From: an uncultured Alphaproteobacteria bacterium
GTDB taxonomy: Bacteria > Pseudomonadota > Alphaproteobacteria > HIMB59 > GCA-002718135
Assembly (NCBI GenBank): GCA_902625365.1
Contig: CACOAX010000001.1
Location: 104,310 to 168,309, forward strand
DNA: 64,000 bases
Direction: 5' to 3'
Positions 41,435-51,624 of the stretch are shown one piece after another. A program made the translations under genes and the position numbers. The notes beneath the pieces are model-generated. The model saw nothing but the letters and a program-made list of their open reading frames with translations, searched no databases and had not been told where the DNA came from. Numbering within the stretch: position 1 is the first letter of the stretch; each line of letters opens with the position of its first letter.

Positions 41435-41509
41435 GCGGGCGTAGCTCAGGGGTAGAGCGCAACCTTGCCAAGGTTGAAGTCGAGGGTTCGAATCCCTTCG
41501 CCCGCTCCA
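41435..41509 (+). tRNA. tRNA-Gly (anticodon GCC), CCA encoded
   Basis: Folded by hand: GCGGGCG-TA-GCTC-AGGGGTA-GAGC-G-CAACC-TTGCCAA-GGTTG-AAGTC-GAGGG-TTCGAAT-CCCTT-CGCCCGC-T-CCA. Confidence 0.95.
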
Positions 41510-41510
41510 A
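41459..41510 (+). repeat. att-like core, copy 1 (within tRNA-Gly)
   Basis: 52 nt GCAACCTTGCCAAGGTTGAAGTCGAGGGTTCGAATCCCTTCGCCCGCTCCAA, identical to 42814-42865. Confidence 0.9.
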
Positions 41511-41546
41511 CAAAACTCCCAAAAACTGTAAAGTATATAAAAACAA

Positions 41547-41567
41547 GGGACACTAGCGGGACACTTA
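41547..41567 (+). repeat. arm-type-like motif, left copy
   Basis: GGGACACTAGCGGGACACTTA; two xxGGGACA half-sites 11 nt apart (41545, 41556). Confidence 0.6.
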
Positions 41568-41614
41568 AAGTTAAATTTACTTAATTTTAAATTGATTAAT
41601 GTTACAATTATAAA

Positions 41615-42652
41615 ATGAAATTTTTACTTGGTTTTGTGATTATAATATTGTCACTTAGCCTTAATGCTAATGACTCAAAACTTTGTTCAATTAATGATGG
41701 AGAAAAGTATCGAGTATCACCTTCTTGTGGTCAGTCAACTGGAGAAAAAATTGCTAATATTAGTGAGGCATATTGTATAAGTGCTCCTTTAAATTTTAGA
41801 AAAAGAAGTCCAGTACAAATAAAAGCAAATCAATTAAAAAAATATAAGGATTCATTTACAAGCAATTGGACCGATAATGAAACGTTACGGGGTTTGAATT
41901 TTGATAATATCAAAATGAAGTGTGATTATTTAATAACCTTAAAACAAAAAAATGATTATGTAGTTTGCTCAAACAAATCAACAAAAAATGGTAGAGAGAA
42001 ATGTTTCAACAACAATGGCCTTTATATAAATAATTTTGTTTCTTTGCGTGTAGCTGAAATGCTTAACATTCAAAATAATAAATTCATTACACTTAAAGCT
42101 TCAAATAAAACTGAAAACGAAAATGAGGAAACAACTTATATTACTGAAGTAAACCAAAATAAAAAAACAATCAAAACTGATACTAATTTGAATCCAAGCT
42201 CACAAATAGTAACTCAAGTTTTAAGTAAAGATAAAATAAAAGAAGAGTTAAAATATTATAAAGAACTATTTGACGAAGAATTAATTGAAAAATCCGAATA
42301 TGATGAGTTAAGAAAAGCACTTCTTGCTGGAATAAAAGAAGGATCGGTTACAAAAACAATAATAATGAATAAACCACAAGATGTTTTTATAAATTCTCAA
42401 AGTGACATAACTAAACTCGAAGAGCAACTTAAACTGGAACAAAGAAAAGTTAAAGCAATGGAAGATCAAGCAGCTGCAACCAAAAACAACAATGCAATTA
42501 TAAAAAAACAACAAAGTAATAAAGCTTGGGGTGCAATTATGGGTTTGGGGTTAAATATGATGACTGGTAATATTGGACCGGGATCAAACCAAAGGCAAAC
42601 TAATTGTTATGGTACTGGTAGTGGCTTTAATTGCACGTCTTACGACTGGTAG
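41615..42652 (+). CDS. secreted Cys-rich protein with SHOCT-like segment, coiled coil and C-terminal glycine-zipper
   Basis: Signal peptide MKFLLGFVIIILSLSLNA; 8 Cys in N-domain; ELKYYKELFDEELIEKSEYDELRKALLAGI (SHOCT-like); AWGAIMGLGLNMMTGNIGPG. Confidence 0.55.
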   Translation: MKFLLGFVIIILSLSLNANDSKLCSINDGEKYRVSPSCGQSTGEKIANISEAYCISAPLNFRKRSPVQIKANQLKKYKDSFTSNWTDNETLRGLNFDNIKMKCDYLITLKQKNDYVVCSNKSTKNGREKCFNNNGLYINNFVSLRVAEMLNIQNNKFITLKASNKTENENEETTYITEVNQNKKTIKTDTNLNPSSQIVTQVLSKDKIKEELKYYKELFDEELIEKSEYDELRKALLAGIKEGSVTKTIIMNKPQDVFINSQSDITKLEEQLKLEQRKVKAMEDQAAATKNNNAIIKKQQSNKAWGAIMGLGLNMMTGNIGPGSNQRQTNCYGTGSGFNCTSYDW

Positions 42653-42665
42653 ACTTAAGTAATTT

Positions 42666-42725
42666 GTGAGTTGCCCCATTGCCGGTTTTCAAGACCGGTG
42701 CTTTCAACCGCTCAGCCATCTCTCT
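42666..42725 (-). pseudogene. truncated tRNA-Ser(UGA): 5' two-thirds only (no T arm or 3' acceptor strand)
   Basis: Minus strand: AGAGAGA-TG-GCTGAGCGGTTGAAAGC-A-CCGGT-CTTGAAA-ACCGG-C-AATGGGGCAACTCAC, then unrelated sequence. Confidence 0.7.
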
Positions 42726-42729
42726 TTGC

Positions 42730-42750
42730 GGGACAGTAGCGGGACACTTA
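42730..42750 (+). repeat. arm-type-like motif, right copy
   Basis: GGGACAGTAGCGGGACACTTA (20/21 to left copy); GCGGGACA at 42728 and 42739. Confidence 0.6.
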
Positions 42751-42813
42751 GTTTACAAAATATTTAATTATGCTATTTAAAAACTAAGAAAAGGCGCTTC
42801 TCCATGGTAACGG

Positions 42814-42865
42814 GCAACCTTGCCAAGGTTGAAGTCGAGGGTTCGAATCCCTTCGCCCGCTCCAA
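42814..42865 (+). repeat. att-like core, copy 2 (perfect)
   Basis: 52/52 identical to 41459-41510; similarity stops sharply at the 5' base of the anticodon stem. Confidence 0.9.
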
Positions 42866-42965
42866 TAAACCTTACAAACTCTCTCTTTTTTCTGTTAAGC
42901 TTTTTTAAAGCTTTCTAATTTTAAATTCTTGTTATGACATCAGTGTGACAGAAAAAAATAGTCTT

Positions 42966-43574
42966 TTACAGACTTCTAACTAATTTCCTGACTTTTAACA
43001 TATGCTTATCAAATATTTTTTTATCCATATTAGGCAAAACTGAATAAAATCGAATATATTTTGTTTTTAAACCACCTAATTTAAATACTACTTTCTTAAT
43101 TCTTCTAAATGGTATGTTATCAAAAATTGAAAAATTTTGGTAACTAATCATTGGGCCCCCATAAGTAATCGAAATAATTCCAAGTTTACCCCTCATTGCT
43201 CCTGGAACAGGGTAACCATAGTTCTTAAAATATTTATTACCTGGTATTAGAGATTTATAAGAAAAAAACCATTTTGGATGAAGTACCCAATCTACCCAAT
43301 TTTCTAGAATTGCATTAAGCCTCAAATTATGACAACTTCCAATTAACATCATAACAGAACATCTTTCTAATCTTTTTCTGTATTCAAGAACAAGTTTTGG
43401 AGGAGGGTTAATATTTTGATTATAAAATGGAAGCCGCTCCTTTTCCTCAAAGAGATTAACCAAGTCAATTTCATGACCAAGTCTCTTTGCTTCATCTATA
43501 AACGTATCTCTAATTGCTGAATTAAAAGAGTCTTTATAATTGTGATGACCGAAAGCAATAAAAATTTTTTTCAT
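42966..43574 (-). CDS. flavodoxin-like-fold NAD(P)H (quinone) oxidoreductase family protein
   Basis: MKKIFIAFGHHN...; ...NAILENWVDWVL (Flavodoxin_2-like). Internal Met 43574 removes overlap with upstream gene. Confidence 0.6.
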   Translation of the reverse strand: MKKIFIAFGHHNYKDSFNSAIRDTFIDEAKRLGHEIDLVNLFEEKERLPFYNQNINPPPKLVLEYRKRLERCSVMMLIGSCHNLRLNAILENWVDWVLHPKWFFSYKSLIPGNKYFKNYGYPVPGAMRGKLGIISITYGGPMISYQNFSIFDNIPFRRIKKVVFKLGGLKTKYIRFYSVLPNMDKKIFDKHMLKVRKLVRSL

Positions 43575-43581
43575 TAAAATT

Positions 43582-43884
43582 TTATAATATTTTTGTAAAC
43601 CCTTCAAATTCTGGATGACCTAAATAAAGATGTTTATTACTACCTGCATTTTTATGGGAGAGACGAAATTTTTCTGATTTTGTCCAGTTAACGAAATCTT
43701 CTTCAGAATTCCATATGCTATGAGAGGCATACAGGGTATATTCATCTGTAGTTTTACCTTTAATCAAGTTAAAGTTTTTAAACCCTGGAACTTTATCTAA
43801 GTGTGCTTCTCTATTTTCCCAAACCTTTTCAAAATCATTTTCTTTACCAATAACAATCTTAAATCTATTCATAGCGATAAACAT
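43582..43884 (-). CDS. ABM (antibiotic-biosynthesis-monooxygenase) domain protein
   Basis: 100 aa ferredoxin-like: MNRFKIVIGKENDFEKVWENRE...SIWNSEEDFVNWTKSEKF. Confidence 0.65.
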   Translation of the reverse strand: MFIAMNRFKIVIGKENDFEKVWENREAHLDKVPGFKNFNLIKGKTTDEYTLYASHSIWNSEEDFVNWTKSEKFRLSHKNAGSNKHLYLGHPEFEGFTKIL

Positions 43885-44047
43885 TATATATATCTAACCA
43901 ATAAAAATATTTTTTTTTCATACATCATATGAAATATTTGTTATGTTTATATTTATTATTAATTTAGAATTAACTAATTTTTTTTTATTTAAAATAAAAA
44001 TTTTTACTAAATTAATAATTCCATCAAAAACAATAATCTAATCTTGT

Positions 44048-44095
44048 CCTTGCCAATGTCGAAGTGGAGGGTTAGAATCCCTTAGCTGATTACAA
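44048..44095 (+). repeat. att-like core, copy 3 (degenerate)
   Basis: CCTTGCCAATGTCGAAGTGGAGGGTTAGAATCCCTTAGCTGATTACAA; ungapped 37/48 to the tRNA-Gly 3' half (hand alignment). Confidence 0.6.
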
Positions 44096-44298
44096 TTAAT
44101 AGAAGTTAAAATCTAATAAAACCTATCTAGTTCTTCAGCAAAAAGTGTTAATTTCACCAAAGTATGTTTTATTTTCCTTTATACATCTGAGGTTTGAAAC
44201 GTCTACTCACTTAAATAAAATATACAAACCTTCTCAAATGTATGTTAATTTTCTAAAATTCTATTAAAAACTATTGCTACCACCAGCTAATTGTTTTT

Positions 44299-44763
44299 TT
44301 AAATTTTTTTTTCTAAAAAATTTAATTTTTTAATTTTAGATGATGAAATGCTCTTAGTATAAGGAATATCTATAACTTTTCCTCTCCATTTTTTGATTAA
44401 ATTGATTAATTTTTGCCTTTCTTTTTTTTGAGGTCCTTTTTTCCAATCACTTCCATGAACGAAAAAATCAACTTTTAATTTTTCAGCAATTTTACAATAT
44501 ATTAAACCATTCAAAGGAATAATATAATCTACATTTTTTATTTGTGAGATTATTTCCTTTCTTTGTCTAAAATTTAAAACTGGATCTCCTTTATAAGATT
44601 TTAATCCACTATCTGTCATTAATCCAACAATTATAGAACCATATCTACTTGCTTTCTTGATTATTCTAATGTGCCCATGATGTAAAAAATCTACAGCCAT
44701 TGGTAAAAAAACAATTGGTCTTTTAATTTTTTTAATATTTTTTAAATTTTTTTTTGAAATCAT
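44299..44763 (-). CDS. cytidylyltransferase-family protein (TagD/glycerol-3-phosphate cytidylyltransferase-like)
   Basis: AVDFLHHGHIRII (HxGH), FVHGSDW, YTKSISSSKIKK (RTxGISTT-like). Confidence 0.75.
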   Translation of the reverse strand: MISKKNLKNIKKIKRPIVFLPMAVDFLHHGHIRIIKKASRYGSIIVGLMTDSGLKSYKGDPVLNFRQRKEIISQIKNVDYIIPLNGLIYCKIAEKLKVDFFVHGSDWKKGPQKKERQKLINLIKKWRGKVIDIPYTKSISSSKIKKLNFLEKKI

Positions 44764-44916
44764 TTATTCCTTTAAACTTAGTAAACAAAAACCATTAGTT
44801 TATATAAATGCTTTATATTTTTTAAATTTAAAATTTAGCATAATCATTTACATGTGATTTAAAACAAAAATTTACAGAAATATTTTAATTAGTATTTATC
44901 AAAACTCATTTCTAGA

Positions 44917-44966
44917 AATTTTGCCAAGATTGAAATCAAGCTTTCTAATCATTTTGACCACTACAA
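44917..44966 (+). repeat. att-like core, copy 4 (more degenerate)
   Basis: AATTTTGCCAAGATTGAAATCAAGCTTTCTAATCATTTTGACCACTACAA; ungapped 36/50 to the tRNA-Gly 3' half (hand alignment). Confidence 0.5.
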
Positions 44967-45095: not shown

Positions 45096-46106
45096 TCAGT
45101 TTTTCTTTAAATCTAAAATTTTTTTTACTATAAATTTTGAATATATTTCTGATTTAAACTGTTCTGCTTCTTTTGAGTTTAAAAAATTTTTAATATTTTC
45201 TAAGTAATTTTCGTACTTTTTTTCATTAATTGATTTTAAATATGCAACTAATTCTGTATAATTTTTATACTTATTTTTATCAATATAACAGTTACTTGGA
45301 ATGTATTTATCAATATTATCTGCGCCTAAATATATCGGAACTACATTTGCAAAAAAACAATGAAAAATTTTTTCAGTAATATAACCATTGTAATTAATAG
45401 CATTTTCATAACAAATACTAAATTTATACATAGATAAAGTTTGAATTTTATCAAAAATATCACCCTTGTAAGATTTTGACTTAATGTTAAAAAAAGATAT
45501 TGGATGAAGTAGTTTTGAATATAAAAAATTTAATAATTTATTAGAACTTATTAATTTATTCCAATTTCTTCCATATAAGTCAAATTCATCGGGAATAATT
45601 TTTTCCAACCATTTAATAGCATTGTATCTTTCAGAATATAATTCATTCTCATCATTAATTTTTTTATTCTCACTTATTAAAGTCAAAAATTTTTTTTTAT
45701 TAAAAGGGGTTTTTAATGTTTTCTGAGGAAATTTATATGTAAGTTGAAATTTAAAATATTTTTTATTATCAACATAATTATCATTCCATGTAAATATTAT
45801 ATCAAATAAATCATGATATGATTCAATCCAGTTTTTTTTATGTATAGTAGGGTTCTCAGCTATAATTAAAGCTGAGACTGCTCTGCTGTTAATCTTAAGT
45901 TTTTTTGGAATATCCACATATATATTTATTTCGCTTTTACTAATTTTATTAATATCTGGTGTAGCTATATTTATATTATTATTAGAGAGTTCACGTTTTA
46001 GGCATAAATATTTGTATCTATATCCATCTGGATCATTAGATTTTTCTACATTAAATATTTCATTACTAGTATTGGCAAAATTAGTTATTAGTGTTGCTTG
46101 TAACAT
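45096..46106 (-). CDS. GT10-family alpha-1,3-fucosyltransferase-like glycosyltransferase
   Basis: YKFSICYENAINYNGYITEKIFHCFFANVVPIYLG matches the FucT motif (YKF..FENS....Y.TEK ... P.Y.G). Confidence 0.7.
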   Translation of the reverse strand: MLQATLITNFANTSNEIFNVEKSNDPDGYRYKYLCLKRELSNNNINIATPDINKISKSEINIYVDIPKKLKINSRAVSALIIAENPTIHKKNWIESYHDLFDIIFTWNDNYVDNKKYFKFQLTYKFPQKTLKTPFNKKKFLTLISENKKINDENELYSERYNAIKWLEKIIPDEFDLYGRNWNKLISSNKLLNFLYSKLLHPISFFNIKSKSYKGDIFDKIQTLSMYKFSICYENAINYNGYITEKIFHCFFANVVPIYLGADNIDKYIPSNCYIDKNKYKNYTELVAYLKSINEKKYENYLENIKNFLNSKEAEQFKSEIYSKFIVKKILDLKKN

Positions 46107-46195
46107 AGAATATAATTGTTATACTAACAATACATCAATATTTATTTTATAATAACAAAGTTTTAATTTCAAAATTTAAATAATCTGTGTTTATA

Positions 46196-46771
46196 TTAAT
46201 CGTTAAAGTAAACATATTGATTTATATTAGGATACTTTTTCTTTAAATCTAAAAATATTTCATTCCAGTCACTCTGAGTTTTCAAGCATAGGTGTATATT
46301 TTTTCCATCATCAAAATATTTTGAAGCTGGAATTGTTGCAATTACAAAAAAAATAAACTTGTTTGACAATTTAAATAGTTCATCAATAAAATTCATAACA
46401 TCCTTTTCAGGAATATGCTCTATAACGTCTGTGCAAATTATACCATCAAATCTTTTATTTGGATAAGTTGAAAATTTTTCTACTCCAGGATCATACAAGA
46501 AGATATTTTCGATACCCCAAAAATCTGATAAATTTTTGAATTCGTTATCTCCAATTTTAAATTTATTACTATATAAAAAGGCTTTTCCACAACCAAAATC
46601 TACTATTGAATTAGCATTATTAATTTTTATAATTTCTTTAATTTTAACAATCCATTTGGTCAGAGAATATCCAAGAAACGTACTTTCTCCAGGCAGGTTT
46701 TTAATGCCATTTTTATGAAAAATTTTATACTTTTCAATAACTTTATAATAATAATCTGAGTAATTTTCCAT
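46196..46771 (-). CDS. class I SAM-dependent methyltransferase
   Basis: Motif I IVDFGCGKAF; DGIICTDVIEHIPE. Confidence 0.8.
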   Translation of the reverse strand: MENYSDYYYKVIEKYKIFHKNGIKNLPGESTFLGYSLTKWIVKIKEIIKINNANSIVDFGCGKAFLYSNKFKIGDNEFKNLSDFWGIENIFLYDPGVEKFSTYPNKRFDGIICTDVIEHIPEKDVMNFIDELFKLSNKFIFFVIATIPASKYFDDGKNIHLCLKTQSDWNEIFLDLKKKYPNINQYVYFND

Positions 46772-46842
46772 TTCTGTTTACTTTACTATATCAACTTAAT
46801 TATAAACATAAATATAATTAAAAATATTACAAAATAAAATAT

Positions 46843-47688
46843 ATGACATTTAATCCTATAGCCGCTATAAACGTTCTTGAGTGTAGAAATATAATAAAAA
46901 ATGAAAATCCTGAAGCAATTGATTTAGGTTCGCAAACATCTTCTATAAGTAGTACTTTTATATCTAGCTTAATTCATCAAAACTCTAAATTAAAAGATTC
47001 ACAAAAAAAAAATTTAGAAAATCTGAAAAATAAAAATGGTTTTAGTACTAAAGATTACTTTCAATCTATTGGTTTCAGTAATTACAAGTCTATAGATATA
47101 AATGGTGTATATGAAAGCTATCAATTTGATCTAAATAAAAATATTTCAAAAACTTATAATTTTAATCAAAAATATGATCTTGTTATTAATAACGGAACAG
47201 GTGAACATGTATTTAATCAATATGCATTATATTTGAATTTTCACAACTTAACTAAAACTGATGGTATAATGTTAAATATACTACCTTTTATCGATTGGAT
47301 TAATCATGGTTTTTATAACTTTAATCCCATTTTTTTTGCTGATTTAGCAGCATCAAATAAATATAAAATTGAAAAAATATCATTAGCAAATAGAGATGGT
47401 GCTGAGTTGAAGTTAGATGCTAGTGATTATGAAATAATGTTTGAACAAATTAAACCTCGTATAAATGATTCTAAATTTAATAAAATGATTGAAATAGCTA
47501 AAACTAAGATTGGCAAAAATATTCTTCTTGTTGTGGTGTTAAAAAAACTCTTCGATAATAAATTTAAAACACCACTTCAAGGAAAGTATTTAAGTGATGT
47601 TTCATCATTTAAAACAGATTACAATTATCAAGGGAAGGGTAGTGCAAATGCTAAAAATCAAATTTCTGATAATAACAAAAGAAAATGA
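46843..47688 (+). CDS. methyltransferase-fold protein with degenerate SAM motif I
   Basis: AIDLGSQTSS (in place of DxGxGxG), YDLVINNGTGEHVFNQ. Confidence 0.4.
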   Translation: MTFNPIAAINVLECRNIIKNENPEAIDLGSQTSSISSTFISSLIHQNSKLKDSQKKNLENLKNKNGFSTKDYFQSIGFSNYKSIDINGVYESYQFDLNKNISKTYNFNQKYDLVINNGTGEHVFNQYALYLNFHNLTKTDGIMLNILPFIDWINHGFYNFNPIFFADLAASNKYKIEKISLANRDGAELKLDASDYEIMFEQIKPRINDSKFNKMIEIAKTKIGKNILLVVVLKKLFDNKFKTPLQGKYLSDVSSFKTDYNYQGKGSANAKNQISDNNKRK

Positions 47689-47692
47689 AAAA

Positions 47693-48454
47693 TTACTCTT
47701 CTAGAAAATTTCTATAATTGAATAATTCAAAGTTAAATTCACCAATTATATTTATATACTTCCTGTAGAATTTAGTTTTACTTCTTTTACTTACACCGTG
47801 AATAGAAAAAGGAGAGTTTAAAAACATTACTAGCCTATTTTGTTTATACTCTATTTCTTCAATCAAATTTACTTTTTCTTCTCTAACTCTAGATTTACCA
47901 TAAAAACTTGGCTTATCTTTAAAATCATATGTCATTAAATTTCCACCTTCAGAGTTATCTTTTTCATCTTTCATATATAAAAGAGCAGCATAAAATTCAA
48001 CTGGGTTATCCAAATGTGGTTCAATGACTTTAGTATCGCCACTAGTAGGCGTATTAATTACAAATTGACAATCTAGATTAAAGTAGTTTTTACTTTCAAA
48101 CCTAACTCCAATATTATTTTTATTAAATAATCTTTCTCTTTCTACTTTATAAATTTTTTTAATTGACTCTCCAAAAATTTCATAAAAATCTTCTAAGAAC
48201 TCATAACTTGTATGAAATTTTATAAATTCTTTCCACTCGCTACTAATTTCATTATCTCTAAGTGAATTATATGCATTATATCTGTAAGCAAAATTTTCTT
48301 TATATTCATTATTACCTATTATTTTTTCATATTTTGGAAAATCCGCATTTAATTTATTATAAATATCTTCAGGCAGAGCATCATCAATTATTAAATATGG
48401 AAATTTATCAAACTTAAATTTTATTTTTTGTTTATTTTGTAAAACACTGTACAT
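47693..48454 (-). CDS. 2OG-Fe(II) oxygenase-fold protein
   Basis: HxD...H facial triad candidates IEPHLDNP ... FSIHGVS, trailing basic residue. Confidence 0.55.
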   Translation of the reverse strand: MYSVLQNKQKIKFKFDKFPYLIIDDALPEDIYNKLNADFPKYEKIIGNNEYKENFAYRYNAYNSLRDNEISSEWKEFIKFHTSYEFLEDFYEIFGESIKKIYKVERERLFNKNNIGVRFESKNYFNLDCQFVINTPTSGDTKVIEPHLDNPVEFYAALLYMKDEKDNSEGGNLMTYDFKDKPSFYGKSRVREEKVNLIEEIEYKQNRLVMFLNSPFSIHGVSKRSKTKFYRKYINIIGEFNFELFNYRNFLEE

Positions 48455-48534
48455 AAAAATTAGATAAAGTTTAAGATTAGATATCAGAAATGAATTTATT
48501 TATAAAGTAAGTAATTAGTTTATAATGTTATTAA

Positions 48535-49296
48535 ATGGAAAAACCGGTTGTTATTTACACTGATCATATAGTTAATAAAACATTATGTTATAATTTTGCA
48601 AAAGGATCAGGTTCGCTTATGTGTCATGTTAGTAAATTTAGAGATTATAACAAAGCAATTGCAACTTATGGTATTTTAAGAGGTACGCTTGAAATAATTA
48701 AAAAGGTTAGAAATTTTTACTATATGGACCATGGTTATTTTAATCAGTCGAAAAGATCTTTTGAAAATAATCGTACAAATATAATCAATTTAGACGGTTA
48801 TTTTAGAATAGTTTACAACAACTTTATACATAATGGCAAAGGTAACTATCCTGATGATAGACTAAAAAAATTAAATCTTAAAATTCACGATCAAAGAAAA
48901 TCTGGTAATCATATAATTCTTTCTGAACCATCGAATGCTATGAAAAAATTATATAATGTACCAAATTGGACTGAAGATACATTAAAATTAGTAAGAAAAT
49001 ATACAGATAGAAAACTTGTGGTACATAATAAATTTTCAAATAAACCATTAAATGTATTATTTAAAGATGCTTGGGCATTTGTGAGTTTGCAATCAACTGC
49101 TGGTTTTATTGCAATGTCCGAAGGAATTCCCTCATATTTTACTGAAAATACTTTATGTAATATAGGACAAATCCGGAATATTGAAAAGCCAAGTATAGAT
49201 TATGAGATTTTTAACAACTTAGCATATGGTCAGTGGACACTTAAAGAAATTGAAACTGGAGAGGCATGGGAATATATTTCGAGAAATTTTTTTTGA
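48535..49296 (+). CDS. hypothetical protein (possibly glycosyltransferase-like C-terminal half)
   Basis: Clean 253-aa ORF in island; no motif I can name with confidence. Confidence 0.4.
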   Translation: MEKPVVIYTDHIVNKTLCYNFAKGSGSLMCHVSKFRDYNKAIATYGILRGTLEIIKKVRNFYYMDHGYFNQSKRSFENNRTNIINLDGYFRIVYNNFIHNGKGNYPDDRLKKLNLKIHDQRKSGNHIILSEPSNAMKKLYNVPNWTEDTLKLVRKYTDRKLVVHNKFSNKPLNVLFKDAWAFVSLQSTAGFIAMSEGIPSYFTENTLCNIGQIRNIEKPSIDYEIFNNLAYGQWTLKEIETGEAWEYISRNFF

Positions 49297-49301
49297 TTTA
49301 G

Positions 49302-49895
49302 CTAAGCCTGTATTGTAACATTAAAACTTATTACAATTCTCTCATCATTAGACAGATTTTCGTTAACAGAATGATCAACATAGCTAGGAAATAATATTAG
49401 AGCCCCTTCTTTAGGTGTAATGCTATTAATATGAGCATTAAGTAAATTAGAGCCTACAGCCTCTGGATAATAAAAGACTGGTGCAGGTCTAGGATCATAA
49501 AAGACAATATCACCACAGTTTTTTGGTGCACGTATATAGTAGGCTCCACTTATGGTGCTATTACCATGTTGGTGTCTTGAATTTGTTGAACCTCCAGTAT
49601 TAATTATGGCCCACATATTGCTTATTTTAATAGATTGTTTTTCCTTTTCCCAATTCATATCTATCATTACTTTCTCAATAGACGGTGAAATATTTTTAAT
49701 AAAGTTTTTAGGCTCTGTTTCTTGCATGTTAAAATCTTTTGAATGCCAACCTTTATTATTACTTTTTTTTATTCCTGTTTTATCTTTAATTTGAGATTCT
49801 TTAATGTAAGTATACATTTCTGCATTAATACTTTCAAAATTTTCAAGTTGTATTGTCCAAACAGGAGTAGGAAAGAGAAGATTTGGTTTGTTCAT
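49302..49895 (-). CDS. 2OG-Fe(II) oxygenase-like protein (TIGR02466-type family by recollection)
   Basis: LLFPTPVW N-terminus, NSRHQHGNS, ILFPSYVDHSV. Confidence 0.65.
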   Translation of the reverse strand: MNKPNLLFPTPVWTIQLENFESINAEMYTYIKESQIKDKTGIKKSNNKGWHSKDFNMQETEPKNFIKNISPSIEKVMIDMNWEKEKQSIKISNMWAIINTGGSTNSRHQHGNSTISGAYYIRAPKNCGDIVFYDPRPAPVFYYPEAVGSNLLNAHINSITPKEGALILFPSYVDHSVNENLSNDERIVISFNVTIQA

Positions 49896-50117: not shown

Positions 50118-51035
50118 TCAATGTTTAAATAGTCTATTTTTTGAAAAGTATAATGAAATTTTATTCTTTATTGAAAATGCTATTACCTTTTTATCATTTA
50201 TTGATCCACTCGGTTGAACTACCACATTACAACCATTTTTATAAAGTAGCTTGATACTATCTGTAAAAGGAAAAAATCCATCTGATGCACAAACAAAAAT
50301 TCCTTTTCTAAAATATTTATTCATATTTTTAATAGCTTCTTTTAATGCATCCACTCTATTAGTTTGTCCATGTCCTAATCCTAAAGTTTGTTTATTTCTG
50401 GATAGTACAATAGCATTTGACTTTAAATGCTTTACAACTTTTAGTGAGAAAATTAAGTCATCAATTGATTTTACAGAACCTCTTTTTTTTGAGACCAATT
50501 TAAGAAAATTTTTATTGATTGGTGTCAAATCTGTTGTTTGATACAGATCTCCAAATAGAGTTGATTTATACTCAATAGGCATTTTTTTAATATTAGGCAT
50601 TTTCAATAAAATTAAATTCTTCTTCTTTTCTAATATCTTAAGAGCATCTTGATCATAATCTGAGGCGACAATCATTTCATAAAAGTTTTTAAATATTTTT
50701 TTTGCAAGGCTATAAGAAACTCTACGATTAAGCAAAATTATCCCTCCAAAAGCGCTTATAGGATCACTTTCATAAGATTTATTAAAAGCTACCTCGATAT
50801 TTTTTGCCGAAGCAATACCACAAGGATTTGTATGTTTCAGAATTATTGATGTAGGTTCACGAAATTCTTTTAAGCATTTTAATCCACTATCAAGATCAAT
50901 AAGATTATTATAACTCATTTTTTTTCCATTAATCTTGTATTTTAAAACAGAGGTTTTTGTATTGCTATGTAAATAACTGTTTTGATTTGGGTTTTCACCG
51001 TATCTTAATTTAATTTTTTTGTTTTTATTATTCAT
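50118..51035 (-). CDS. purH: AICAR formyltransferase (C-terminal domain of PurH as a separate ORF)
   Basis: KLRYGENPNQ, KHTNPCGIA, SDPISAFGGII, ASDGFFPF, C-terminal LFKH. Confidence 0.9.
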   Translation of the reverse strand: MNNKNKKIKLRYGENPNQNSYLHSNTKTSVLKYKINGKKMSYNNLIDLDSGLKCLKEFREPTSIILKHTNPCGIASAKNIEVAFNKSYESDPISAFGGIILLNRRVSYSLAKKIFKNFYEMIVASDYDQDALKILEKKKNLILLKMPNIKKMPIEYKSTLFGDLYQTTDLTPINKNFLKLVSKKRGSVKSIDDLIFSLKVVKHLKSNAIVLSRNKQTLGLGHGQTNRVDALKEAIKNMNKYFRKGIFVCASDGFFPFTDSIKLLYKNGCNVVVQPSGSINDKKVIAFSIKNKISLYFSKNRLFKH

Positions 51036-51624
51036 TCAACCAATTAGAAATAACTTTATCATATTTAGAAGTCTCATTAAAAACTTTTAATGCCATTTTT
51101 TTTCTGAAAAAAATATCAGTTGTTCCACTATTTTTATTTAAATTTGTAATTAATTTTTTATAATCCATAATATCTATTATTGGAGTAATATATCTGAAAT
51201 TTTTTCCTGCTGCCCTTAACAGAGCTGGTCCCCCTATATCAATCATTTCTATTATTTTATCGCTATTATGTTTTCCTAAATATTTCTTAAATGGATATAG
51301 ATTTACAACAACGATATCTATTTTAGGGAAATTTAATAATTGAAACTGTTTTAGATGAGTTTTGTTATCTCTTTTGTAGAGCAAAGAGCTGTATATTAGT
51401 GGGTTTAAAGTTTTAACCCTACCATCAAACATTTCTTTAAATTTAGTTAGTTTTGAAATATCTTTACATTTAAAACCCAAACTACGTATTTTTGCTCCCG
51501 TAGAGCCACTTGAAATAAAATTATAATTATATCTATTTAAATTATCACAGAGATATCTTAAATTTTTTTTTTCGAATACAGAGATTAAAGCAAATTTTTT
51601 GTTTAGATTTTTTCTAAGGACCAT
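51028..51624 (-). CDS. purH: IMP cyclohydrolase (MGS-like N-terminal domain of PurH as a separate ORF)
   Basis: FALISVFEKKN, DGRVKTLNP, VVVNLYPF, MIDIGGPALLRAAGKN; stops in the interdomain linker; 8-nt overlap ATGAATAA with the next ORF. Confidence 0.85.
   Translation of the reverse strand: MVLRKNLNKKFALISVFEKKNLRYLCDNLNRYNYNFISSGSTGAKIRSLGFKCKDISKLTKFKEMFDGRVKTLNPLIYSSLLYKRDNKTHLKQFQLLNFPKIDIVVVNLYPFKKYLGKHNSDKIIEMIDIGGPALLRAAGKNFRYITPIIDIMDYKKLITNLNKNSGTTDIFFRKKMALKVFNETSKYDKVISNWLNE

Follow-up and report, generated by a model that had tools for sequence, protein, structure and literature searches.

A 1,355-bp integrase-free element at a SAR11 tRNA-Gly gene: a likely non-autonomous cassette with paired arm repeats

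How do flexible genes move in SAR11, the most abundant group of bacteria in the ocean? A 2025 Microbiome study describes SAR11 islands without canonical mobile elements (PMC11796062), which leaves the movement of their flexible genes an open question. We analyzed a 64,000-nt stretch of DNA from an uncultured alphaproteobacterium (hereafter, the window), in which a short unit bounded by two repeats follows a tRNA-Gly(GCC) gene. The original prediction, made from the sequence alone, described this unit as an integrase-less mini-element that uses an integrase encoded elsewhere. Our analyses make it likely that positions 41511-42865 are a non-autonomous integrative cassette at the 3' end of the SAR11 tRNA-Gly(GCC) gene, similar to cis-mobilizable elements (CIMEs), and that it is one of a large population of modules. 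This population has the same 52-nt core throughout, and its pair of arm repeats is class-specific.

The two 52-nt cores are identical (52/52) and spaced 1,355 nt apart (Table 1). A 21-mer, GGGACA(C/G)TAGCGGGACACTTA, occurs on both arms of the element in direct orientation (41547-41567 and 42730-42750), 36 and 63 nt from the cores, with 20/21 positions identical. Each copy contains two half-sites with a period of 11 nt: AAGGGACA at 41545, and GCGGGACA at 41556, 42728 and 42739. There are three occurrences of GCGGGACA in 64 kb, compared with 0.04 expected from shuffles. Allowing up to three mismatches, the two copies of the 21-mer are the only ones in the window (shuffle expectation 0.00). The repeats, the doubled half-sites and the absence of further copies had all been noted in the original prediction, and sequence comparison bore them out. 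The same is true of its description of the content, a single secreted-protein gene (an ORF, or open reading frame, of 345 aa) and a tRNA-Ser fragment.

We compared the same tRNA-Gly site in 68 loci from SAR11 single-cell genomes, found with the blh protein as an anchor (70-97% protein identity) and not selected by motif. Core copies matching at least 44/52 nt were taken as module bounds, and most matched at 51-52. Counting the window, tRNA-Gly is trailed by one to four core-bounded modules in 45/69 loci. Only five of the 67 bounded modules have a full-length integrase gene; seven have fragments only and 55 have none. Among the modules lacking an integrase, the median length is 1,233 nt (minimum 505 nt; 40/55 are at most 1.5 kb), and the array position of a given module type varies between loci. 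These mostly integrase-free arrays support the idea that the window element is non-autonomous.

The left arm of each module has a direct-repeat pair of 7-9 nt with an 11-nt period, located about 20-70 nt past the left core. The pair sequence is family-specific (for example, GGGACAC, GCAATATAG, GTAGCC, GTCCCAC, ATCGGCA, ATCGACA, TCCGACA, TGTGACA, GGTCACA, CGTCTCC and GCGCCA), and a matching family pair is found on the right arm, 73-121 nt upstream of the right core. In a strict test, an exact paired 6-mer was present on both arms in 17/45 families, all with period 11 (permutation, 2.0). In a relaxed test of the loci not selected by motif, the arms matched in 26/42 families versus a permutation mean of 5.0 and a maximum of 13 (5,000 trials). 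Most of the modules that do not match have decayed or are composites in which an internal core has been lost. Since the arms match within families and the motif differs among families, we interpret the pairs as functional recombination-related sites. This is our main argument, and it supports the proposed layout of a phage-type attachment site (attP) with arm-type sites on both arms. GGGACA-type arms accompany at least seven different cargos. The distances between the two arm pairs, P' past the left core and P before the right core, cluster in the mini-elements about one helical turn apart, a phasing that is suggestive only.

Two further analyses of the arms were set aside. We dropped a conservation plot of GGGACA-class arms as evidence, because its sequences had been chosen by that motif. 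The GTCCCAC-type pairs were considered as inverted GGGACA sites, a view that we replaced with a tentative frame, NNNN-CAC(T)T, which both motifs would share without inversion.

Where would an integrase come from? In several classes, some modules have an intact tyrosine integrase gene directly after the P' pair or, in the TGTGACA class, on the other arm. The encoded proteins match Pfam Phage_integrase and Int_N. Each integrase class examined has its own arm pair, so that the arm motif changes with the integrase lineage, as in a lambda-type attP. DUF5906 proteins are encoded by the autonomous relatives L084, L103, L107 and L114; in module L084.1, for example, the DUF5906 primase-like protein has 868 aa and is encoded together with an integrase. 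When metagenomes were scanned for the core with a GGGACA pair after it, more GGGACA-class mini-elements with other cargos were revealed, and also contigs L095, L096 and L102. In L095 and L102, the core lies between a P and a P' pair and is followed by a gene for a 339-aa integrase, which is an attP-type junction with a GGGGACA variant.

Homologues of the L095-type integrase in marine data formed 210 clusters at E < 1e-20. One of them, P0029, is encoded on contigs L107-L113, which are circular permutations of a single ~6.69-kb unit from marine metagenomes. The gene order of this unit is integrase, 75 aa, 67 aa, DUF5906 primase-like protein (840 aa), three small ORFs, a MORN-repeat protein and attP. 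Its attP has a 52/52 core, the P pair GCGGGACAGTTCCGGGTACAGT and, 22 nt past the core, GCGGGACACTAGCGGGACAG, a near-match to the window 21-mer; the integrase start codon follows ~45 nt later. The original prediction had proposed a search for GCGGGACA-N3-GCGGGACA beside an integrase gene, and L107-L113 provide this arrangement. An integrase beside the same core and arm motif supports its suggestion that the integrase is supplied from elsewhere. With the same core, the same arm motif, an integrase and a primase-like gene, the L107-L113 element is the kind of autonomous relative known for CIMEs, and we consider it a plausible helper for the window element and the best candidate. Other autonomous relatives are also circular or concatemeric: L103 assembles as a circle (42-nt terminal overlap) and L114-L117 as a concatemer (period 7,339 nt).

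Searches for a helper among known phages and viruses were negative. A BLAST search of the element against a phage collection found only tRNA-Gly genes and no pelagiphage attP. Scans of IMG/VR for the core with a GGGACA pair, and with the integrase alignment, found nothing. IMG/VR contigs that share a 17-mer were rejected as a SAR11 helper, as they are GC-rich and unrelated and only show that GCGGGACA arrays exist elsewhere. We also rejected L019, a viral contig of high GC content that has nothing in common with the element but the tRNA 3' end.

The window cassette itself is also present in L060, where it is 99.3% identical over 1,284 nt (nine mismatches, no gaps). By contrast, the two genomes share only 89.3% identity over 4.9 kb of upstream core genes, and they have unrelated neighbours on the right. 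The last ~19 nt before the right core are the sole differing stretch of the cassette (window 42794-42813 versus L060 12234-12252). Genomes nearer to the window by blh identity (97%) do not have the cassette. In L049, L085 and L042, a module 91-94% identical to M2, the next module of the window, comes directly after tRNA-Gly, which represents the empty site. In L039, another GGGACA-class mini-element occupies that position. The 99.3% cassette beside 89.3% flanks, the empty sites and the L039 replacement together indicate the recent horizontal spread of a discrete unit bordered by the cores, as judged from these sequences. Homologous recombination via the 52-nt cores is a conceivable alternative route for this spread. 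We infer that the window copy may still be mobilizable.

Could the element nevertheless be an inert remnant, left by deletion from an element that used to be autonomous? In that case, homologous recombination (which is high in SAR11) through the tRNA/blh flank and the 52-nt repeats, together with differential loss by RecA-mediated deletion between repeats, would account for its patchy distribution. Decay is evident at this site: the neighbouring modules M2 and M3 are clearly decaying, and many integrases are truncated pseudogenes. The L091 module carries a P arm of the autonomous L107 type and has no integrase, showing that integrase-free modules arise by deletion. The perfect repeats of the window element could also simply reflect a recent origin. 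On the other hand, the L060 cassette is far more similar than its flanks, and because the right neighbours differ in L060, the only shared homology on the right side is the 52-nt core. The same cassette types are found at different array positions. Moreover, the prevalence of integrase-free modules comes with matching pairs on both arms in most of them. We therefore consider an inert remnant unlikely.

We also identified many database proteins (P0001-P0015) that are 60-120-aa N-terminal fragments of this integrase family, which fits with frequent integrase truncation at these sites.

Which protein might read the paired repeats? We compared 11 integrases with known arms and found that the N-terminal sequence differs for every arm class. 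For L084 and L095 (arms CGTCTCC versus GGGGACAC), residues 1-32 are 53% identical and the rest 85%; for L103 and L095 (arms GTGTCCCA versus GGGGACAC), the values are 62.5% and 83.5%. The conserved remainder of the integrases fits with the shared core. A structural model of the N-terminal region, which drew on N-terminal fragments from a homologue search with the N-terminal 70 aa, has three antiparallel strands followed by a helix (predicted local distance difference test, pLDDT, 80-88). The arm-binding domains of lambda and Tn916 have this beta-beta-beta-alpha topology. In a profile search against PDB sequences, lambda Int aligns from residue 74 onward with these integrases from residue 62 onward, which places their N-terminal 61 residues in the position of the lambda arm-binding domain. 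Based on sequence and model, it is most likely that the integrase N-domain binds the arm pairs.

Alternatively, the pairs may bind a protein other than an integrase, such as an excisionase or other directionality factor, a small regulator, or a replication initiator, in which case they would be iterons. Arrays of GCGGGACA with an 11-nt period are indeed found beside primase-helicase genes in unrelated GC-rich viral contigs, and the products of small ORFs in the autonomous SAR11 elements, which show faint helix-turn-helix similarity, could bind the pairs instead. However, the pairs are located at fixed offsets on either side of the core, as is typical of arm-type sites, and in modules with both integrase and cargo a pair immediately precedes the integrase gene. 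In L076.1 there is no space behind the integrase for a small accessory gene, and the hypervariable integrase N-terminus changes whenever the pair changes. In addition, the GC-rich prophage contig L014 combines tRNA-Val, a GGGACA pair and an integrase with a weak Pfam match to an arm-binding domain (E = 0.00076). Binding by another protein thus appears improbable. The chance that the layout is a coincidence, or that a segment around the tRNA was duplicated locally and has no link to mobile DNA, is negligible, as nothing favors it beyond an AT-rich background that yields many short repeats, and it conflicts with the shuffle controls and with an architecture that recurs in dozens of independent genomes and metagenomes.

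Several observations, in addition to the small helix-turn-helix-like ORFs, weigh against a cassette mobilized by an arm-binding integrase. A six-frame translation of the window gave no match in 64 kb to a profile of eight family integrases, which agrees with the predicted lack of an integrase and also means that the window offers no helper of this family. The integrases match Arm-DNA-bind_4 only weakly (E = 0.003), and a Foldseek search with the N-domain model found no significant match. The autonomous attPs of L095 and L103 have a P-to-P' distance of 186 nt, off the helical phase of the mini-elements. Finally, the intact arms of the window copy may reflect recent arrival rather than selection.

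We propose the following mechanism. The integrase, of the tyrosine type, would come from an autonomous element that belongs to the arm class of the cassette. It would bind with its catalytic and core-binding domains to the core, in the anticodon stem-loop region, and with its small N-terminal beta-beta-beta-alpha domain to the paired GCGGGACA sites on both arms. The crossover would take place in the anticodon loop, as suggested by the identity block, which starts at the anticodon stem; this placement follows the sublocation classes of tRNA genes that Williams reportedly defined in 2002. Recombination between the 52-nt cores would release a 1,355-bp circle with a complete attP. This circle could re-insert at any tRNA-Gly core, including the cores of resident modules, and in this way build tandem arrays. 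The helper would be the ~6.7-kb circular L107-L113 element, which encodes P0029 and the DUF5906 primase-like protein. Alternatively, the cassette could be excised together with an adjacent autonomous element, as CIMEs are.

How does this element compare with known systems? In lambda-type heterobivalent attPs, arm-type sites are paired, as in mycobacteriophage L5. The window element resembles them in having at both ends a core that is the attB target sequence of the tRNA gene, and paired direct repeats about one helical turn apart on both arms. The integrases of related elements likewise resemble lambda Int in having a small N-terminal predicted beta-sheet domain in the position of the arm-binding domain. 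In contrast, the window element has no integrase of its own, and we identified no sites for accessory factors.

CIMEs and tandem accretion at att sites are described in work on ICESt1-related islands of Streptococcus thermophilus (PMC5704250). Following the definition given there, the window element is flanked by attL and attR and carries no integrase or transfer genes. Like the CIMEs of that account, it is related to autonomous elements with the same att sites and stands in tandem with others at a tRNA gene. The SAR11 elements differ from the CIMEs described there in being miniature (0.5-1.5 kb) and mostly single-gene, and in forming at least 12 arm-repeat classes on one core. Integrase-free modules outnumber integrase-bearing ones ~11:1 at this locus (55 versus 5). 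The autonomous SAR11 relatives, which are putative mobilizers, are small circles with integrase and primase genes rather than conjugative elements. The tandem arrays and the contrast in identity between cassette (99.3%) and flanks (89.3%) lend such mobilization indirect support.

Prochlorococcus tycheposons are tandem elements separated by partial tRNAs, with degraded remnants (bioRxiv 10.1101/2020.12.28.424599), and Pelagibacter has integrase-associated elements that are tycheposon-like or are virion-encapsidated satellites (virion-encapsidated integrative mobile elements, VEIMEs; PMC9618062, PMC11876622). Like tycheposons, the SAR11 modules lie at tRNA or tmRNA genes in marine bacteria with streamlined genomes, form tandems with partial tRNA repeats in a genomic island and include degraded remnants. 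The autonomous SAR11 relatives further resemble them in combining an integrase with a primase/helicase backbone and cargo, and in forming circles or concatemers. However, the window element has none of the hallmark genes, and primase-like genes are present only in the autonomous relatives.

The 2025 study of SAR11 islands reports partial repeats of the bordering tRNA in four islands, read as gene-cassette insertion, and finds no canonical mobile elements and only one integrase (PMC11796062). Arm repeats, arm classes and a helper element are not described in the passages of it that were available. The original prediction considered such miniature integrase-dependent elements to be uncharacterized in SAR11-type genomes. 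This holds only in part, as cassettes bounded by partial tRNA repeats (PMC11796062) and integrase-bearing Pelagibacter elements (PMC9618062, PMC11876622) have already been reported. Tandem accretion of integrative elements is likewise known, but a range of arm-repeat specificities on one core appears undescribed. One search of an incomplete literature collection ("arm-type" with "Pelagibacter") turned up no paper on such arm-repeat rules, on classes of arm repeats or on single-gene cassettes without integrase as the predominant form.

In functional terms only, the modules resemble integron cassettes: they are promoter-poor single-gene units without a recombinase, stacked in arrays and presumably moved in trans by a tyrosine recombinase. 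They differ from them in that the SAR11 recombination site is a duplex attP of ~250 bp with a tRNA-derived core, and neither an attI nor a resident IntI was noted beside the array. No attC-like site was seen on reading the element sequence; no search dedicated to attC was made, and intI itself was not searched for. Tentatively, we suggest that the tRNA-Gly site, and at least the tmRNA site, could be an integron-like cassette platform of lambda-type recombination. Dozens of single-gene cassettes, each with a complete attP and all on one tRNA-derived core, would fall into a dozen or more compatibility groups set by a short arm-repeat code, the code being read by the fast-evolving integrase N-domain, and integrases would be supplied in trans by transient circular integrase-primase elements. 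Such a platform would be a main route of flexible-gene exchange among SAR11 genomes regarded as free of mobile elements. We consider this whole reading possible, although we lean slightly away from it.

The main interest of the element is that it exemplifies a cassette system that is widespread, follows rules and occupies an integration hotspot of SAR11; a candidate helper for this system has been identified. It makes a concrete mechanism testable, in which single-gene cassettes keep only the recombination sites and borrow an integrase, and this may help explain gene swapping in streamlined ocean bacteria. The 21-mer, the 52-nt core and the candidate integrase P0029 are defined reagents for such tests. 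The arm classes on a common core, with the hypervariable integrase N-termini, provide a dataset for learning arm-binding specificity, and can be used to annotate cassette borders in SAR11 pangenomes.

Table 1 Coordinates of the integrative cassette and of the modules that follow it in the window.
Feature	Position	Strand	Basis
tRNA-Gly(GCC) gene, functional; role of attL (host 5' part and core)	41435-41509	+	ARAGORN; Rfam RF00005, 70.9 bits
Core copy 1, 52 nt, from 5' side of anticodon stem to tRNA 3' end	41459-41510	+	Repeat comparison
P'-arm pair AAGGGACActa GCGGGACActta, half-sites 41545/41556, 34-36 nt past left core	41545-41567	+	
Cargo gene, 345-aa predicted secreted protein, function not assigned	41615-42652	+	ORF; signal-peptide-like N-terminus
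tRNA-Ser(UGA)-like 5' fragment (D arm, anticodon arm, start of variable arm), abutting the P-arm pair	42670-42727	-	Sequence reading
P-arm pair GCGGGACAgta GCGGGACActta, half-sites 42728/42739, 63 nt before right core	42728-42750	+	
Decayed pseudo 5' half of tRNA-Gly, left of right core, part of P arm	42790-42813	+	18/27 identity to true 5' half
Core copy 2 (attR core), 52/52 match to copy 1	42814-42865	+	Repeat comparison
Module M2, older, TGTGACA arm class, ending in decayed core 44044-44095 (38/52)	42866-44095		
M2 gene, flavodoxin-like	42966-43607	-	
M2 gene, ABM monooxygenase	43582-43884	-	
Module M3, older than M2, ending in decayed core 44915-44966 (37/52)	44096-44966		
M3 gene, cytidylyltransferase-like	44299-44763	-	

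The two decayed 52-mers downstream identify the mini-element as the newest unit of an array formed by at least three serial insertions after tRNA-Gly. M2 has its own repeat pair, TATGACA/TGTGACA, at 42933/42944. Upstream of tRNA-Gly are the retinal-pathway genes crtB, crtY and blh, and on the far side of the island the first recognized conserved gene is purH, at ~50.1 kb. This gene (AICAR transformylase/IMP cyclohydrolase; 50118-51624, minus strand) is split into the overlapping ORFs 51028-51624 and 50118-51035, which suggests a frameshift, due either to an error in sequencing or to pseudogene formation. In L118 it is a single 507-aa ORF. Between these genes and M3, the older island segment (45096-49895; very low GC content, 0.21-0.26) encodes a GT10 fucosyltransferase-like protein, methyltransferases and two 2OG-Fe(II) oxygenases, a gene content that is typical flexible-island cargo.

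The cargo protein of the element has no Pfam match and only five relatives in the protein collection. An exact-protein look-up found no match for the blh product and, for the cargo protein, only a 1,137-nt contig identical to the window. Two homologues of the cargo protein were identified in analogous modules at the alphaproteobacterial tmRNA gene (L123 1-2400 and L124 1-2300). These modules have ACGGCACA x2 pairs with an 11-nt period on both sides and are bounded by a repeated core from the tmRNA end, revealing the same cassette grammar at a second site and a cargo common to both sites. In L122 (6850-7010), a related integrase gene lies beside a Leu-like partial tRNA, and a GGTAGCAC x2 pair is directly upstream of its start codon.

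The tRNA-Ser-like fragment has a sub-threshold Rfam tRNA match at 42682-42716. It is also present in the P arms of L022.2, L031.1, L034.2, L039.1, L054.1, L059.1, L060.1, L066.1 and L080.2. The fragment is conserved across several arm classes and persists in decayed form in L033-type mini-elements, but the autonomous attPs of L095 and L107 lack it. Possible roles are termination of cargo gene transcription or none, as a relic of an ancestor that targeted tRNA-Ser. ARAGORN called a second tRNA at 42790-42864, which scored 25.1 bits in Rfam (threshold 29). Across modules, the ~19 nt left of the right core are of about five types, shuffled relative to the arm classes.

Integrase-bearing modules, such as L031, L044, L055 and L095 (465-490, oriented), have CTTTTCCTAGAAAG(A/T)GAGAA just upstream of the integrase start codon. 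In inverted orientation this motif matches TTTCTCTAGGAAAAGG, a sequence found in many P arms ~35 nt before the right core, and it may be a further protein-binding or regulatory site. Among the GC-rich IMG/VR contigs, L002, L003, L006, L012, L017 and L018 (GC content 0.46-0.69) carry 3-8 GCGGGACA-like units with an 11-nt period, and several of these arrays are the ones that adjoin primase-helicase genes. In the soil contigs L093 and L094, tRNA-Gly is followed by GGGGACA x3.

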